Positions 1,128-6,861 of a stretch of DNA of 7,806 nt are shown here, one piece after another. The position numbers and the translations under genes are program-made. The stretch is from a virus (taxonomy: Duplodnaviria > Heunggongvirae > Uroviricota > Caudoviricetes): IMG/VR virus record IMGVR_UViG_3300029459_000073, positions 1 through 7,806 of that record, one strand, 5' to 3'. The notes under the pieces are model-generated. The model searched no databases and was not told the DNA's origin. It saw nothing but the letters and a program-made list of their open reading frames with translations. Positions within the stretch are counted from its first letter, which is position 1; the number at the start of each line of letters is the position of its first letter.

Positions 1128-3089
1128 TCATGCCGCGGCATCCGCGTTGTTCACTTCCACCTTCACACTGTCAATCAGCAGCGTATATGTCGCCGCCTTT
1201 GATATGCCTGTCAGTTGCAGTTTGTCCGCCGCCCCTGATGCCGGAGATTTCACCAGTGTGAACGGCGTCCCCCGTTTCTCATCCAGTACCGGCGTCACCT
1301 GAATGCTGTTGTTTCCGGCAAACTCAAAAGCCAGTGTGTGCCATCCGTTATCAAAGACCCCGAACGTATCCAGCTTCGCATTCGGCTTCTTGTGGTACAT
1401 CGCGTTCAGGTTCGTCGCATCCGTCTGCAGGAAGAAGGACATCAGCATGTCGTTGCCTTCCTCTGCCAGCGTCACTCCCTCCGGCAGGGACGACAACTGC
1501 CAGTAAATGCCCAGGGCAAACCGATTCGGCACCAGTGAACCCGGCAACTTAAACCGTACGCTCACACGTCCCCCCTTCTTCAGTAACTCCACTCCCTGTC
1601 CGGCTGCATCATGCTCCAGAAACCAGATGTGGTTTTCCGGTTTATTCAGTTGCAGGGCCTTACCTCCCGTAGCCCCCGCATCACTGACCACCGCTTCAGC
1701 AATGTTTTTGTTAACATTGTCTCCGCTCGCCGGTTTGTGATAATAGCGCCAGCCCTGTGATGCCAGGTCTTCGCCGGACGCCAGCAGACTCATCAGGGTT
1801 CGGTTACTGACCGGGGCTTCCGGCTCTCTCTCCGTACCTTCACCGGAAGGTCCGGTGGGCTTCACCGTATCAGGCTGTTTTCCGGTAATGAATTCAGCGG
1901 TTCTCCCGGCATGCACAAGAATCGCCGTTGCCAGACGGTCGGAAATAATCCCACGACGTGCCCATGATCCAAAATGCGTTTTACGGTCGGCCGTCGTCCA
2001 GGTTTTGGCGTCCGTTCGACCACCGGCTCCGTAATACCCAATATCCGCAACATCCGGATCTTCTGACGGCTCGTTGGTACCCACATTTCGCCCGTTTTCA
2101 TCCGTCATAAACGGCACAAAGAAGATTTTTTTTGCGGATTTCGTCTTGTATGCACCATACACCGCATCGTATTGCGAAGAATAAGTCTGCTTCCAGTAGT
2201 AGGTCGTGTCGCCACAAATCCAGGGAACCGATGACGGAGAGCCCCCGAGACACTGACCTCCGAATTCCGACAGGTCAGAACGATATTTTTCCACCATGGA
2301 ATCAAACAGCCCCGGCTGAGTGGCGTATGCACCCTGTTTCAAATCAAACTCGCCCTGCATCCAGACCACTGCAAGCAGAATATTTTTAGGGTTAGCCTTC
2401 AGTGCGGCCTGAGTACGGGTAAGCAGGTCCTTGTACAGTGGCTTATCTACACCCCAGCGTGCCGAGGTCTCGCTTGCGCCGGTGGATTCGCTGAAGGTAC
2501 CTTCATCGCCCGCCAAAAATGCAGAACCACCACGGCAGCACGGAACCAGAAGAATACCGGCATTCGCCGGAATAAACGGCAACAATTTCTTCGCGATATG
2601 TAATCCCTGCCCCACGCATCCATACTGAGCTGCGCTGGCTTTCGGGTGTGAAAACTTACTCAAATCCTGAACATCATGCAGGCAGTGGTCCGCAGGAATA
2701 ATGTCATTGTAGTTACAGGACGCACCACCCGGCGTGACAGTGCTGCGACGCGCCAGCTGTTTAATACGCGGGTCCGGACGGTCATATGTCTCCGGCAGCG
2801 GAAGCCCTTCACCATACGCCATACCGTTTGACTGCCCGGCCAGGGCAACAACAAAGTAATACTCCGGGTTGCTGGTGGTGCTGATAACTGCGCCTTCTCC
2901 ATCCGACGGCTTCACCACCACAGGTGTGGTGACATCACCTTCCGCCGCAATGGCCTGCATCAGGGTATAAGGCGTGATGGCCACCGGACTGCCAAATGGC
3001 TGCCACCCCTCCTTCAGTTTTTGTGTCAGTCGCTCCGCAAGGTCTGACGGCGACGCCGCCCTGACCACGTCATAGTGTTTAAATGCCAT
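1128..3089 (-). CDS. nanS: Prophage-encoded sialate (9-O-acetyl-N-acetylneuraminic acid) O-acetylesterase, NanS-p type, 653 aa
   Basis: The N-terminus MAFKHYDVVRAASPSDLAERLTQKLKEGWQPFG matches the DUF1737 start I recall for the 933W-type NanS-p (the yjhS-like gene downstream of stxB). The central region carries the SASA/SGNH-type block VVALAGQSNGMAYGEG. Strong RBS GGGAGG 5 nt upstream of the ATG at 3089. Single uninterrupted 653-codon frame. Confidence 0.88.
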   Translation of the reverse strand: MAFKHYDVVRAASPSDLAERLTQKLKEGWQPFGSPVAITPYTLMQAIAAEGDVTTPVVVKPSDGEGAVISTTSNPEYYFVVALAGQSNGMAYGEGLPLPETYDRPDPRIKQLARRSTVTPGGASCNYNDIIPADHCLHDVQDLSKFSHPKASAAQYGCVGQGLHIAKKLLPFIPANAGILLVPCCRGGSAFLAGDEGTFSESTGASETSARWGVDKPLYKDLLTRTQAALKANPKNILLAVVWMQGEFDLKQGAYATQPGLFDSMVEKYRSDLSEFGGQCLGGSPSSVPWICGDTTYYWKQTYSSQYDAVYGAYKTKSAKKIFFVPFMTDENGRNVGTNEPSEDPDVADIGYYGAGGRTDAKTWTTADRKTHFGSWARRGIISDRLATAILVHAGRTAEFITGKQPDTVKPTGPSGEGTEREPEAPVSNRTLMSLLASGEDLASQGWRYYHKPASGDNVNKNIAEAVVSDAGATGGKALQLNKPENHIWFLEHDAAGQGVELLKKGGRVSVRFKLPGSLVPNRFALGIYWQLSSLPEGVTLAEEGNDMLMSFFLQTDATNLNAMYHKKPNAKLDTFGVFDNGWHTLAFEFAGNNSIQVTPVLDEKRGTPFTLVKSPASGAADKLQLTGISKAATYTLLIDSVKVEVNNADAAA

Positions 3090-3283
3090 GAATCCTCCCG
3101 GCCTGGATAATATTGTGAGTAAAATGAGGAGCGGGCTGAAGTCCGGAAGTTACAGGACAATGGCAGAAGATAGACAACAGCCCGCAATACGAAAAAGGCC
3201 GCGCTATTGCGCAGAGTGATTACTGTCGGATATTATTCGCCAGCTGAAATATTACTTCACGTTTTGTTGTTTATTCCTTGCCG

Positions 3284-3311
3284 CCCGCGTCTCCCAGCGC
3301 GGGATTTTTTT
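3284..3311 (+). terminator. Rho-independent terminator, plus-strand orientation
   Basis: Stem CCCGCG (3284-3289) pairs with CGCGGG (3298-3303) around an 8-nt loop, followed by ATTTTTTTG (seven T at 3305-3311). Confidence 0.5.
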
Positions 3312-3315
3312 GTCC

Positions 3316-3341
3316 ATAAGAAAGCCCCTCCGGAGAGGGGC
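3316..3341 (-). terminator. Candidate rho-independent terminator, minus-strand orientation, back-to-back with the 3284-3311 terminator
   Basis: Stem GCCCCTC (3324-3330) pairs with GAGGGGC (3335-3341) around loop CGGA. On the minus strand it is followed by TTTCTTAT (complement of 3323-3316). The U-tract is interrupted, so this is a moderate call. Confidence 0.4.
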
Positions 3342-3660
3342 TGGAGAGTGGCGCTATGTGCCATTGCATGGTGCCGGGTGCCTCCCGGTGAGTTCAGTAT
3401 CAGCACCTGAACCCGCACAGAAAGGATAAGGGTCGGTGACAAAACACCAGTTGCTGATTGCCCCTCCGCACAGGGGGATTCACCATGCCAGTTTCTTTTA
3501 ACAAACTCCCCGCAAACCAGACAACAGTCAACCGCCTGAATTGTGAGGTATTTAAAAATTTCAACGGGTAACTGATACCCTGCTAATCGCCTGATGCTTT
3601 CTTTTTCAGCAACGGGAAAGCAACAACCACCACACCCACCAGCCGCCCATTTACCACAAA

Positions 3661-3685
3661 TAAAAAAGCCTTCACTGCGGAAGGC
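3661..3685 (-). terminator. Rho-independent terminator, minus strand, overlapping the stop of the small ORF 3672..3869
   Basis: Stem GCCTTC (3668-3673) pairs with GAAGGC (3680-3685) around a 6-nt loop. On the minus strand it is followed by TTTTTTATATTT (complement of 3667-3656). Confidence 0.5.
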
Positions 3686-3869
3686 GTCTGTAACAACCGA
3701 ACTGATAGTCTGCCAGACCCGCCATAACCAGCTGGGTCAGTATTAACTGGCAGCGTTCGCGTGAAAGGTAAGTATTCTGCGCTATCTCCCCGACTGTCGC
3801 CGGTTCGGTGACGCTTAATTCATTAAACACCACTCTGGCGGTTTCTGTCATATCCTGCTGTTTCAGCAT
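3672..3869 (-). CDS. Hypothetical small protein (66 aa from ATG at 3869..3867), possible helix-turn-helix or winged-helix fold, in the Q to nanS cargo slot
   Basis: ORF track 3672..3992. The 106-aa form begins with GTG inside the U-tract of the upstream terminator, so the internal ATG is preferred; it gives MLKQQDMTETARVVFNELSVTEPATVGEIAQNTYLSRERCQLILTQLVMAGLADYQFGCYRRLPQ. A GGGA motif lies about 9 nt upstream. The ORF is bracketed by minus-strand terminators on both sides. No family recognised. Confidence 0.3.
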   Translation of the reverse strand: MLKQQDMTETARVVFNELSVTEPATVGEIAQNTYLSRERCQLILTQLVMAGLADYQFGCYRRLPQ

Positions 3870-3992
3870 GTCTTTTTCCCTTTTCCGGTTAACGTGACAC
3901 ACCAATAACTCTTGTCGAAAAAGCCAGCAACCTGAAAGAACGGTATTAATAACCACCAGCGAATTTATTGCGCTACTGTATATCGCGGACAC

Positions 3993-4013
3993 AAAAAAAC
4001 CACCTTCCGGTGG
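3993..4013 (-). terminator. tR'-like intrinsic terminator about 80 nt downstream of the Q stop codon
   Basis: Stem CCACC (4000-4004) pairs with GGTGG (4009-4013) around loop TTCC. On the minus strand it is followed by seven T (complement of 3999-3993). The position matches the lambdoid PR'/tR' arrangement immediately after Q. Confidence 0.45.
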
Positions 4014-4019
4014 CTTCCT

Positions 4020-4093
4020 TTTGCGAAAAAAACTTGCGTTTCGCCTCGCGATACAGCTTTGCGAAGCTTATACGGATTGAAGCAGTTTATTGA
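4020..4093 (-). promoter_or_regulatory. Expected location of the late promoter PR' and Q-utilisation (qut) site; exact elements not resolved
   Basis: Positional inference from lambdoid architecture (Q stop, then PR'/qut, then tR'). The best minus-strand -10 candidate is TATAAG (complement of 4072-4067), with a poor -35 that overlaps the Q stop codon. Confidence 0.25.
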
Positions 4094-4657
4094 TCAGTTT
4101 GCAACATTTTTCTCTGTAACAAAAGCCATGCGCATGGGGGCATATAACATAAATTCAGATACCCCCAACCATTGATCAATTCGGCGTCTGCACGTAACCA
4201 ACGACCAATCAGGATGATCTGCATTTAACCTTTCGGCCATTTTCAGTTTGCTCATTCCCCGTCCTTCGTACCTTTGCCGGAGAACATTGATTAGCCCGGG
4301 ATATTCCCCAAGCACCTTACTGATAACGCGATCAATAATCAACGCCTCTGTGTCTGTACAATGTGACAACCAGCTCTTCTGCTTTCCTCTTGTCATATCC
4401 CGAAAAAATGCCTCAAGTTCCGGTTTTTCCAGCCCGGATTTCTTCATTCTGCGCAAAACCTCATTAACTGCTGTTTTCGTCAGCTTTTTCGAAACCAGTA
4501 ACCGGTTAAACATATTTCCGGATTTACCCCCACCGATATACGACCACCGCCCCCACATCCGTAATTTCCCCTGGATCCAGACTGCTTCCAGCGTGTTCAG
4601 GCGTAAATGTTCGCCGCTTTTGCCTGTAATTTCCGGATATATCATATTTACGCTCAC
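4094..4657 (-). CDS. Q: Late-gene antitermination protein Q-like (187 aa from GTG at 4657, or 183 aa from ATG at 4645)
   Basis: It occupies the canonical Q position: directly after rusA (6-nt gap) and directly before a tR'-like terminator and the late/lysis region. The protein family was not matched residue by residue from memory, so the call rests mainly on synteny and size. Confidence 0.6.
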   Translation of the reverse strand: MSVNMIYPEITGKSGEHLRLNTLEAVWIQGKLRMWGRWSYIGGGKSGNMFNRLLVSKKLTKTAVNEVLRRMKKSGLEKPELEAFFRDMTRGKQKSWLSHCTDTEALIIDRVISKVLGEYPGLINVLRQRYEGRGMSKLKMAERLNADHPDWSLVTCRRRIDQWLGVSEFMLYAPMRMAFVTEKNVAN

Positions 4658-4663
4658 TCACTC

Positions 4664-5023
4664 TCAATTTTGTAAATCTTCACACCCAGCCNNNNNNNNN
4701 NNNNNACCAGATACTGGCTGACCACGTACAATATTGATTTCATCAAACTGCTCATCGTCCATTAACAGTCCTGCATGCGTCAGCGCATCCAGCGGCGCTT
4801 TCAGGATATTGTCCAGGTCGCGACGGCGCTTATCCGGTGGCTCTGCCATAATCCTGATTACCAGCCTTCCGGACAGGCTTAATTTCAGCCGCTGCTGGCG
4901 AACAATAAGCGCCACAGCCCGGCGATAACGCTTTCCCTCCTCCGAGATAAAATATGTGCTGCCACGGCGTCGCCAGTAAGTGTTCACCGTCGGCGGGTAA
5001 GGTAAAACCAAATCTATGAGCAT
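4664..5023 (-). CDS. rusA: Crossover junction endodeoxyribonuclease RusA (Holliday junction resolvase), about 119 aa, interrupted near the C-terminus by an N-run
   Basis: MLIDLVLPYPPTVNTYWRRRG...PPDKRRRDLDNILKAPLDALTHAGLLMDDEQ matches the RusA signature I recall from DLP12 RusA (LPWPPS.N.YY..., DRRRRDLDNLQKA.FDALT). Strong RBS AAGAGGTGA 5 nt upstream of the ATG at 5023; the track's start at 5026 is a GTG one codon further up. The C-terminal sequence after 4705 is uncertain because of the N-run at 4692-4705. Confidence 0.85.
   Translation of the reverse strand: MLIDLVLPYPPTVNTYWRRRGSTYFISEEGKRYRRAVALIVRQQRLKLSLSGRLVIRIMAEPPDKRRRDLDNILKAPLDALTHAGLLMDDEQFDEINIVRGQPVSGXXXXXAGCEDLQN
4692..4705. 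other. Run of 14 ambiguous bases (N), an assembly gap or masked bases inside rusA
   Basis: Literal n characters in the sequence. True length and content are unknown. Confidence 0.95.
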
Positions 5024-6434: not shown

Positions 6435-6461
6435 AAAAAACAAAACCCGCCGAAGCGGGTT
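6435..6461 (-). terminator. Strong rho-independent terminator ending the hok transcription unit
   Basis: On the minus strand: 7-bp stem AACCCGC/GCGGGTT with a UUCG tetraloop (loop complement of 6451-6454), followed by TTGTTTTTTCC (complement of 6443-6433). Confidence 0.6.
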
Positions 6462-6500
6462 ACGTGCGGGTGCGTTGAGGATGCCTGACACATCAGAGGT

Positions 6501-6522
6501 GGCGAGGGATTTCTCCCTCGCC
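6501..6522 (-). other. Perfect 9-bp stem-loop 8 nt downstream of the hok stop codon (candidate 3' mRNA structural element)
   Basis: GGCGAGGGA (6501-6509) pairs with TCCCTCGCC (6514-6522) around a 4-nt loop. No U-tract follows on either strand, so it is not called a terminator. Confidence 0.4.
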
Positions 6523-6529
6523 GGGTCTC

Positions 6530-6685
6530 TTACTCCTCAGGTTCGTAAACTGTGAAGACAGCGACCTCCGTCTGGCCGGTTCGGATTCGTACCTCGCAGA
6601 GGTCTTTCCTCGTTACCAGTGCCGTCACTATGACGGTTAAACAGATGACGATCAGGGCGATTAACATCGCCTTTTGCTGCTTCAT
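6530..6685 (-). CDS. hokD: Hok/Gef-family type I toxin (small membrane toxin), 51 aa, HokD/RelF-like
   Basis: MKQQKAMLIALIVICLTVIVTALVTRKDLCEVRIRTGQTEVAVFTVYEPEE has the Hok hallmark (hydrophobic helix, LTRK.LCE.R motif, conserved Cys) and closely matches my recollection of K-12 HokD (RelF). RBS AAGGAG about 9 nt upstream of the ATG at 6685. The track ORF 6530..6742 adds a 19-codon in-frame upstream extension. Confidence 0.85.
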   Translation of the reverse strand: MKQQKAMLIALIVICLTVIVTALVTRKDLCEVRIRTGQTEVAVFTVYEPEE

Positions 6686-6861
6686 AGCCTGCTTCTCCTT
6701 GCCTTTCGGCACGTAAGAGGCTAACCTACATGTGTCTAGCATGAAATTGGCCTCAGATTAATGTTAAGCGTCTTGCAGGACGCGTAATGTTAACTGGGGC
6801 TTTTCTCTATCTGCCTTTTGGTATTCATGCCTGAGACAGATAGCCTCAAGCACCCGCAGCA

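Follow-up and report, generated by a model that had tools for sequence, protein, structure and literature searches.

A probable pair of facing small RNA genes, of a kind already known from Shiga-toxin prophages, upstream of nanS-p in a lambdoid late region

Mapping of Hfq-bound RNA in E. coli O157:H7 Sakai described "convergent sRNAs" lying between a moron gene and a conserved downstream ORF (Tree et al. 2014, Mol Cell, PMC4104026); the "conserved hypothetical phage ORF" of that work is nanS-p. The example given there is AsxR (EcOnc02), which faces EcOnc27 on the 3' side of stx2B. In the same dataset, EcOnc08 and EcOnc21 (both from prophage Sp4) and EcOnc42 (from Sp15) were treated as one homologous RNA of ~271 nt on northern blots (Table S2, PMC4104026). 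This RNA faces EcOnc05 (~222 nt), and its EcOnc08 Hfq peak was the stronger one, seen in 5/5 datasets (PMC4104026). Other studies have touched on the same neighborhoods: stx1AB was described as "bookended" by EcOnc42 on its 3' side (Sy et al. 2020), STnc100 was noted just downstream of stx2 (PMC12370729), and nanS-p was found to be induced by mitomycin C in parallel with stx2a (PMC10462455). The function of EcOnc42/21/08 was given as unknown in a 2021 review (PMC7873438).

The window analyzed here is a 7,806-nt stretch of DNA in which all convincing genes lie on the minus strand, and it represents the entry to the late region of a lambdoid prophage (Table 1). The region of interest is the intergenic stretch between the phrog_331 ORF and nanS-p, whose minus-strand ATG has its first base at 3089. 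We consider it very probable that 3146-3517 holds two facing sRNA genes, located in the moron slot of the late operon between the Q region and nanS-p. The gene pair is one already known in Shiga-toxin prophages of E. coli O157 and not a new insulator or operator, as had been proposed for this site; what appeared to be an insulator plus an operator is a site documented as an sRNA hot-spot in Shiga-toxin-type prophages. This analysis itself showed what the two genes are and where they lie, that their terminators are conserved, and how the locus divides into alleles. No tRNA genes were found across the whole window, and in many relatives tRNAs are located further upstream. A plus-strand small ORF at 3088-3219 (43 aa) was considered as a gene, had neither a PHROG match nor a Shine-Dalgarno sequence, and was treated as non-coding.

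Table 1. Coordinates of the features described in the window
Feature	Coordinates	Strand	Basis
hok/sok-like module: sok	6855->6680	-	Rfam
hok/sok-like module: MokW-like ORF	6742->6530	-	
DUF968 gene	6082->5036	-	
RusA gene	5026->4664	-	
Q antiterminator, DUF1133 / Phage_antitermQ type	4657->4094	-	
phrog_331 ORF	end at 3672	-	
STnc100-family sRNA gene (equivalent to EcOnc05 and EcOnc27 of E. coli O157 Sakai)	3312..3517	-	Rfam RF02076
Intrinsic terminator of the STnc100-family sRNA: 8-bp stem 3342->3323, then UUCUUAUGGAC	3312..3342	-	pattern scan, fold, Rfam
Hfq-bound plus-strand sRNA EcOnc08/21/42, minimum extent; antisense to nanS-p leader	3146..3311	+	probe and Hfq peaks
Intrinsic terminator of the plus-strand sRNA: 7-bp stem (3284-3290 with 3297-3303), 6-nt loop, A + U7	3284..3311	+	
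Predicted short form of the plus-strand sRNA, ~69 nt; counterpart by position of AsxR, AgvB, and EcOnc03	3242..3311	+	inference
Internal promoter candidate: -35 TTGCGC (3207-3212), 18-nt spacer, -10 TATTAT (3231-3236)	3207..3236	+	
Hairpin CUGCGC-AAUA-GCGCGG (3214->3199), then CCUUUUUCG; ~110 nt upstream of nanS-p ATG	3189..3214	-	pattern scan, fold
7-bp inverted repeat CGCAATA (3183-3189) / TATTGCG (3205-3211), 15 nt apart	3183..3211	.	exact in window
Upstream promoter candidate for a long RNA (~194 nt): ATGCCA, 17 nt, GATAAT; overlaps nanS-p start codon	3083..3111	+	
nanS-p Shine-Dalgarno, GGGAGGA	3099->3093	-	
nanS-p, sialate O-acetylesterase; DUF1737 + SASA + DUF6645 domains	1128..3089	-	
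DUF826 gene	947->504	-	
Holin S	428->213	-	

A pattern scan for terminators and a consensus promoter scan were applied to the region 2800-4800. The pattern scan returned 7 terminator-like sites, compared to 2.3 +/- 1.7 in shuffles, and these included both of the facing terminators discussed below. Hairpins listed in the late direction were 4013->4000 (just after Q), 3685->3668, 3342->3323, and possibly 3214->3199.

The minus-strand gene belongs to the STnc100 family. The Rfam model RF02076 was matched over its full length (1-206 of 206) with 143.2 bits and an E value of 1.5e-32, where the gathering score is 47, and the same model was also found at the equivalent position in Sakai Sp4, Sp5, Sp10, and Sp15 when Rfam was run on those loci. 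The unit lies after Q and ahead of nanS-p and the holin, and its transcription follows the phage late direction. Measured against the STnc100 / PasD family (RF02076; Zhu, Shabalina and Storz 2026 preprint), the minus-strand RNA of the window fits the full model, and no difference was found. Sakai coordinates were carried over after the shift from NC_002695.1 to.2 had been calibrated with AsxR, AgvB, the probes, and the PR' start site of Sy et al. (~0 at Sp4 and ~+136 from Sp5 onward), which places the EcOnc05 Hfq CRAC peak at ~3333-3441 on the minus strand. The last helix of the RF02076 match is the minus-strand terminator of the original prediction. Its arms AGCCCCTC and GAGGGGCT (3323-3342), with TTCTTATGGAC next on the minus strand, form a G+C-rich 8-bp hairpin directly followed by a U-tract, the sequence pattern of a Rho-independent terminator. 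The hairpin folds at -18.0 kcal/mol (z -2.8), and the U-tract is interrupted (UUCUUAU).

StxS, or lambda 6S RNA, the PR' transcript ending at tR', offers a second comparison. Like it, the STnc100 unit is a short late-strand RNA with an intrinsic terminator, and the likeness would extend to a terminator that Q-modified polymerase reads past and to Hfq binding as a by-product of antitermination control. However, StxS sits directly after PR', and the counterpart of its position in the window is probably the terminator at 4013->4000. The STnc100 unit lies ~500 nt further downstream, beyond another ORF and another terminator.

The plus-strand gene corresponds to EcOnc08/21/42. The northern probe of Tree et al., AATAATATCCGACAGTAATCACTCTGCGCAATAGC, is the exact reverse complement of 3203-3237 (35/35 bases), so the RNA it detects is a plus-strand one; the probe sequence likewise has a match in Sp4 and Sp15 of Sakai. 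In calibrated Sakai coordinates, the Hfq CRAC peaks EcOnc21 and EcOnc42 fall at ~3146-3231 and EcOnc08 at 3237-3309, all on the plus strand. Identity to the Sakai loci is 92-97%: 91.8% to Sp4 over 2953-3558, 93.75% to the Sakai chromosomal locus over 2996-3395, and 97.1% to VT1-Sakai (the Sp15 sequence) over 3050-3395. Expression and Hfq binding were shown by others, in Sakai, and at this level of identity the CRAC and northern data suggest that the plus-strand RNA of the window would likewise be expressed and Hfq-bound. Its terminator pairs CCCGCGT with GCGCGGG and continues with A and T7 (3305-3311), so that here too a G+C-rich hairpin (7 bp) runs into a U-tract (U7); the fold is at -13.4 kcal/mol (z -2.3). 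This terminator is the 3' end of the Hfq-bound sRNA EcOnc08/21/42. Both terminators of the original prediction are thus real by their number above shuffles, their folds, and their conservation. The plus-strand transcription unit that it had ending at 3311 is supported by the 3' edge of the EcOnc08 peak at 3309 and by the probe match.

Nothing substantial separates the window from the published pair EcOnc08/21/42 versus EcOnc05 of Sakai Sp4 and Sp15 (PMC4104026). The position between the moron/tRNA region and the nanS-p homologue and the orientation both match, and the sequence identity, the probe match, and the STnc100-type partner are all present. The window represents a different prophage, where a DUF1133-type Q and the phrog_331 ORF lie upstream in place of stx or tRNAs. 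In its plus-strand terminator the base following the stem is A and not C, which leaves one pair fewer. In Rfam, the plus-strand RNA has no family, and only sub-threshold chance matches were returned (anti-hemB, 15.9-19 bits; OmrA-B, 15.1 bits). A trans-acting or sponge function, in which it would base-pair with a core-genome sRNA, may be suggested by analogy with the anti-sRNAs AsxR and AgvB, an analogy of position only. Two other RNAs were considered for the locus and rejected: Esr41 is encoded elsewhere, on SpLE1, and HnrS (EcOnc10-12, 66 nt, multicopy) sits ~5 kb deeper in the late region.

The T-run on the plus strand stops at 3311 and the STnc100 match at 3312, so that the two 3' ends abut within ~0-6 nt. 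The locus therefore has opposed sRNA units with abutting intrinsic terminators between a moron region and the conserved downstream ORF, which is the arrangement of the described convergent pairs. Each terminator would primarily form the 3' end of its own sRNA, the hairpin and U-tail being the usual Hfq-binding module. In a lysogen, the late-direction hairpins would, as a by-product, halt unmodified polymerase ahead of nanS-p and the lysis genes, and the plus-strand terminator would keep antisense transcription from the upstream moron and Q region. Q-modified polymerase would pass the late-direction terminators. Such read-through fits both the layout and the mitomycin-C induction of nanS-p (PMC10462455), and the earlier expectation that late transcription under Q antitermination would continue across the region is borne out to that extent. 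The insulating effect assigned to this site is real but a by-product, because the terminators primarily make the 3' ends of the published convergent sRNAs (PMC4104026).

An alignment of related loci (A1) showed that the plus-strand gene occupies an exchangeable position. The left flank is common to all loci up to GCGCAG (3209-3214), the right flank begins ~12 nt before the STnc100 hairpin, and unrelated alleles lie between the two. The window carries type A, while the published sequences of AsxR/EcOnc03 and AgvB correspond to types B and C. Rarer alleles were represented by L012 and L082, and 48 further loci have a ~630-nt allele with a ~111-codon antisense ORF (phrog_4407) converging on the STnc100 hairpin. 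The plus-strand gene would then be a cassette in a slot between the shared -35 flank, whose TTGCGC overlaps the right arm of the inverted repeat, and the STnc100 terminator. In the Rfam run on Sakai, STnc100 has an abutting neighbor on the opposite strand in two prophages, AsxR in Sp5 and AgvB in Sp10. At the type A loci of Sp4 and Sp15, it stands alone because the type A sRNA has no Rfam family; a family model for it would be a modest but useful contribution to EHEC/EPEC sRNA biology.

AsxR (RF02703), AgvB (RF02702), and EcOnc03 occupy the same slot and strand as the window sRNA, antisense to late transcription. They share with it the -35 flank, a -10 in equal register, and a hairpin with U-tail abutting the STnc100 terminator. 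In contrast, neither the body nor the terminator is related to theirs in sequence, and the window lacks the ~42-nt 3' region conserved in AsxR and AgvB (GTATCTCATGC..GCCCGAACCCAyTCGGGC). The AsxR and AgvB models gave no match in the window at E <= 1, nor in 3170-3330 at E <= 10, although they score 88-97 bits on Sakai Sp5 and Sp10. The published transcript of the window allele is ~271 nt, whereas theirs are 51-60 nt.

The original prediction also placed a plus-strand promoter inside the slot, which would give a transcript of about 70 nt. The positions of its hexamers were right, but the -35 matches the consensus at only 3/6 bases and the promoter was not called by the consensus scan, so that its support comes from the comparison with related loci and not from the consensus. 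The -35 lies inside the flank common to all alleles, and TATTAT occupies the same alignment columns as TAAAAT in the AsxR/AgvB alleles and TAGTAT in L012, within surrounding sequence that differs (A1). The 5' ends of AgvB and AsxR mapped by RLM-RACE (CGATAAC.. and CGATTAT..) are 5 nt past the -10 hexamer and aligned with A3242. Because both the -10 and these mapped ends are aligned, the prediction of a ~69-nt RNA is reasonable, and we regard such an RNA from the internal promoter as plausible. The stronger of the Hfq peaks, EcOnc08, falls on this span. The published probe is wholly upstream of 3242 and could not detect this short form. Since the probe does detect RNA, plus-strand transcription also begins further upstream, and the inverted repeat and the internal promoter are themselves transcribed. 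The upstream candidate at 3083-3111 was the only promoter-like site in 2800-4800, where one found compared to 1.9 expected is chance level. Neither the predicted ~69 nt nor the ~194 nt that this candidate would give agrees with the ~271-nt size seen on northern blots.

A more speculative reading of the type A allele, somewhat less likely than not, is that it encodes two nested RNAs, a ~69-nt Hfq-type sRNA on the AsxR/AgvB promoter scaffold and a 5'-extended form antisense to the nanS-p leader. Prophages would, in this view, use the slot bounded by the shared -35 flank and the STnc100 terminator as an exchange site for antisense cassettes, either one of several sRNA alleles or a small ORF, while the frame of promoter and terminator stays fixed. 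The short form would so far have escaped detection because the sole published probe lies upstream of its start, and a check for it would be a modest but useful addition to EHEC/EPEC sRNA biology. The long form may have a cis-antisense effect on the nanS-p leader.

It is rather unlikely, though a serious competitor, that only the ~271-nt RNA is made, that the internal promoter is a chance match, and that no ~69-nt sRNA exists. The long RNA would then pair in cis with the nanS-p leader in the late mRNA, possibly including the ribosome-binding site and first codons, and damp or process the expression of nanS-p and the lysis genes. The only transcript published with the 3203-3237 probe is indeed ~271 nt, and an RNA of this length ending at 3311 would start near 3041, inside nanS-p, and cover the Shine-Dalgarno and ATG; that probe, however, is blind to anything starting at 3242. 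The second Hfq peak (EcOnc21/42, 3146-3231) lies upstream of the predicted short start, whereas the stronger peak, present in all five datasets, coincides with the predicted short RNA. The internal -35 hexamer is weak, yet the -10 is held in register across otherwise unrelated alleles, with the AsxR/AgvB 5' ends mapped 5 nt downstream. Finally, the AsxR and AgvB loci have the common upstream flank and yield only the 51-60-nt RNAs (PMC4104026).

We consider it highly improbable that the site is an insulator making nanS-p an autonomous, self-regulated moron, with the palindrome at 3183-3211 serving an unknown DNA-binding regulator as its operator. The two terminators do sit on the upstream side of nanS-p and would block non-antiterminated transcription both ways, but both terminators are already explained as sRNA 3' ends. 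The palindrome, whose left arm is 94 nt from the nanS-p ATG, was correctly located and is exact in the window. Perfect 7-bp inverted repeats with a 3-20 nt loop nevertheless number 21 in the window compared to 18.6 in dinucleotide shuffles, which is chance frequency, and the palindrome is not part of the minimum-free-energy fold of 3178-3216 (z -0.5). Across 44 distinct homologues, the inner five pairs are mostly kept, while the outer two read TA..TA (12), TT..AG (16), or TA..AG (15). The half-sites diverge (CGCAATT vs CGCAACT), so the repeat is not kept as a DNA dyad, and the variation is compatible with weak pairing in the plus-strand RNA instead. In the Sakai data the palindrome also lies inside an expressed, Hfq-bound RNA. 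The operator proposal is not sustained on these grounds.

The idea of nanS-p as a moron with its own regulation fares no better. On the minus strand, the stretch from 3311 to 3090 yielded no sigma-70-like site that could serve nanS-p in the consensus scan, which detects consensus-type promoters only, and nanS-p is induced along with the late genes (PMC10462455). A moron in the sense of Juhala et al. 2000, with its own upstream promoter and own downstream terminator, is thus not what we observe.

A further minus-strand hairpin, 3214->3199, overlaps the right arm of the palindrome and was absent from the original prediction. It folds at -9.1 kcal/mol (z -2.0). Among the 44 homologues, 3199-3204 pairs with 3209-3214 in 98.1% of cells when read as minus-strand RNA and in 78.4% when read as plus-strand RNA, a bias that arises because G-to-A changes retain G-U pairs on the minus strand only. 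With its U5 tail, the hairpin is possibly better read as a second late-direction terminator or a nanS-p leader structure, a suggestion drawn from few independent changes.

Comparative alignment of nanS-p upstream regions gave a divided outcome for the features of the original prediction: both terminators are conserved in hundreds of related loci, but the palindrome only partly in the 44 homologues. Scanning IMG/VR for the exact minus-strand hairpin GCCCCTCCGGAGAGGGGC returned at least 120 stretches with a match. These loci were chosen solely by that hairpin, which introduces no bias toward the plus-strand terminator. Among the matches listed, 55 of the 122 occurrences with enough flank had a plus-strand hairpin and T-run directly adjoining, and in all 55 of these the nanS-p start was within 450 nt. 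The adjoining hairpins, again among the matches listed, comprised 17 distinct sequences in at least six stem families, with folds of -9.9 to -19 kcal/mol, all then followed by T5-T9. Examples of the stem families are CCCGCG..CGCGGG, GCCCGA..TCGGGC, GCCCGTTAC..GTAGCGGGC, CCCGCGC..GCGCGGG, and GCCCGCAT..ATGCGGGC. Changes on both sides that preserve pairs were observed in the plus-strand terminator (RNAalifold and pair counts). In the MAFFT columns the type A terminator register misfits the AsxR/AgvB alleles, with stems shifted by 2 columns (+2 slide control), and each hairpin was therefore also scored individually. Structure is kept while sequence is replaced, as expected for a working terminator.

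It is barely credible that the hairpin at 3284-3303 acts instead in the late mRNA of the minus strand, for instance as a nanS-p leader stem for processing or stabilization, since although a self-complementary hairpin also forms in the late transcript and the neighboring 3214->3199 has a minus-strand pairing bias, what is conserved beside the stem in every allele is the plus-strand T5-T9 (on the minus strand, an A-run upstream of the stem), U-G at 3290/3297 (26 sequences) and 3285/3302 (15 sequences) pairs on the plus strand only, 80.7% of cells pair in the plus-strand reading compared to 65.7% in the minus-strand one, and it is the plus strand that carries the Hfq peak.

The 256-nt core of the locus (3090-3345) is widespread in E. 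coli, being present in 1,283 of the 5,426 complete genomes with up to 7 copies per genome, yet 39 of the 40 RefSeq records sampled had no annotation under the match. It was also found in 296 phage records. The segment follows stx1B, stx2B, tRNA clusters, or a TerB-like gene, and these varied upstream genes indicate that it moves together with the 5' end of nanS-p, including at loci that have only a truncated nanS-p.

Immediately 3' of the stop codon of Q, the DUF1133-type antiterminator gene, two hairpins with T-runs were found on the minus strand at 3995-4093, the second of which (4013->4000) appeared in the scan output on the plus strand only. The pair is probably a PR'-tR' unit, the counterpart in position of StxS or lambda 6S, the PR' transcripts ended at tR'. 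For the phrog_331 ORF that lies next (see table), no Pfam match was found; its start is likely the ATG at 3869, and with its own terminator it looks like a moron.

Minus-strand features after Q and in the hok/sok-type module
Feature	Coordinates	Strand	Remarks
First hairpin after Q	within 3995-4093	minus	GCGAAACGCAAGTTTTTTTCGC
Second hairpin after Q	4013->4000	minus	CCACCGGAAGGTGG then T7
phrog_331 ORF	within 3668-3992	minus	between Q and STnc100 gene
Terminator of phrog_331 ORF	3685->3668	minus	GCCTTCCGCAGTGAAGGC then TTTTTTATTT
MokW-like host-killing ORF (phrog_251)	6742->6530	minus	70 aa; overlapped by sok match

The 97% homology of 3050-3395 to the Stx1 prophage VT1-Sakai ends at ~3395, in the middle of the STnc100 sRNA gene (3517->3312); this point marks a putative mosaic junction within the sRNA. 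Among the IMG/VR matches listed, 67 loci carry the STnc100-type terminator without an adjacent plus-strand terminator, and in 48 of these the slot before the esterase gene nanS-p is occupied by an ORF of ~111 codons (phrog_4407), which is antisense to late transcription and convergent on the STnc100-type hairpin. One example, L113 (minus orientation), has ~632 nt from the hairpin to the nanS-p start. The exact hairpin occurs twice, on the same strand and about 465-490 nt apart, in eight loci (L022, L023, L026, L037, L062, L064, L071 and L073), which suggests tandem STnc100/PasD-like units.

Within the nanS-p leader and the region of EcOnc21, the Hfq peak of a plus-strand sRNA, an imperfect inverted repeat pairs GCGGGCTGAAGTC (3131-3143) with GACAACAGCCCGC (3173-3185) over 13 nt at 85% complementarity, with 29 nt between the arms. 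It exceeds in size the 7-bp palindrome CGCAATA/TATTGCG that the original prediction had offered as a possible operator.

Elsewhere in the window, a hok/sok-type toxin-antitoxin module was observed at 6530-6855 on the minus strand, with an Rfam sok match of 120.7 bits at 6855->6680. Just 3' of its hok-like ORF, the clean terminator AACCCGCTTCGGCGGGTTTTGT forms the end of a weak, sub-threshold isrK-like match (6440-6521, minus strand; 27.8 bits against a gathering score of 50).
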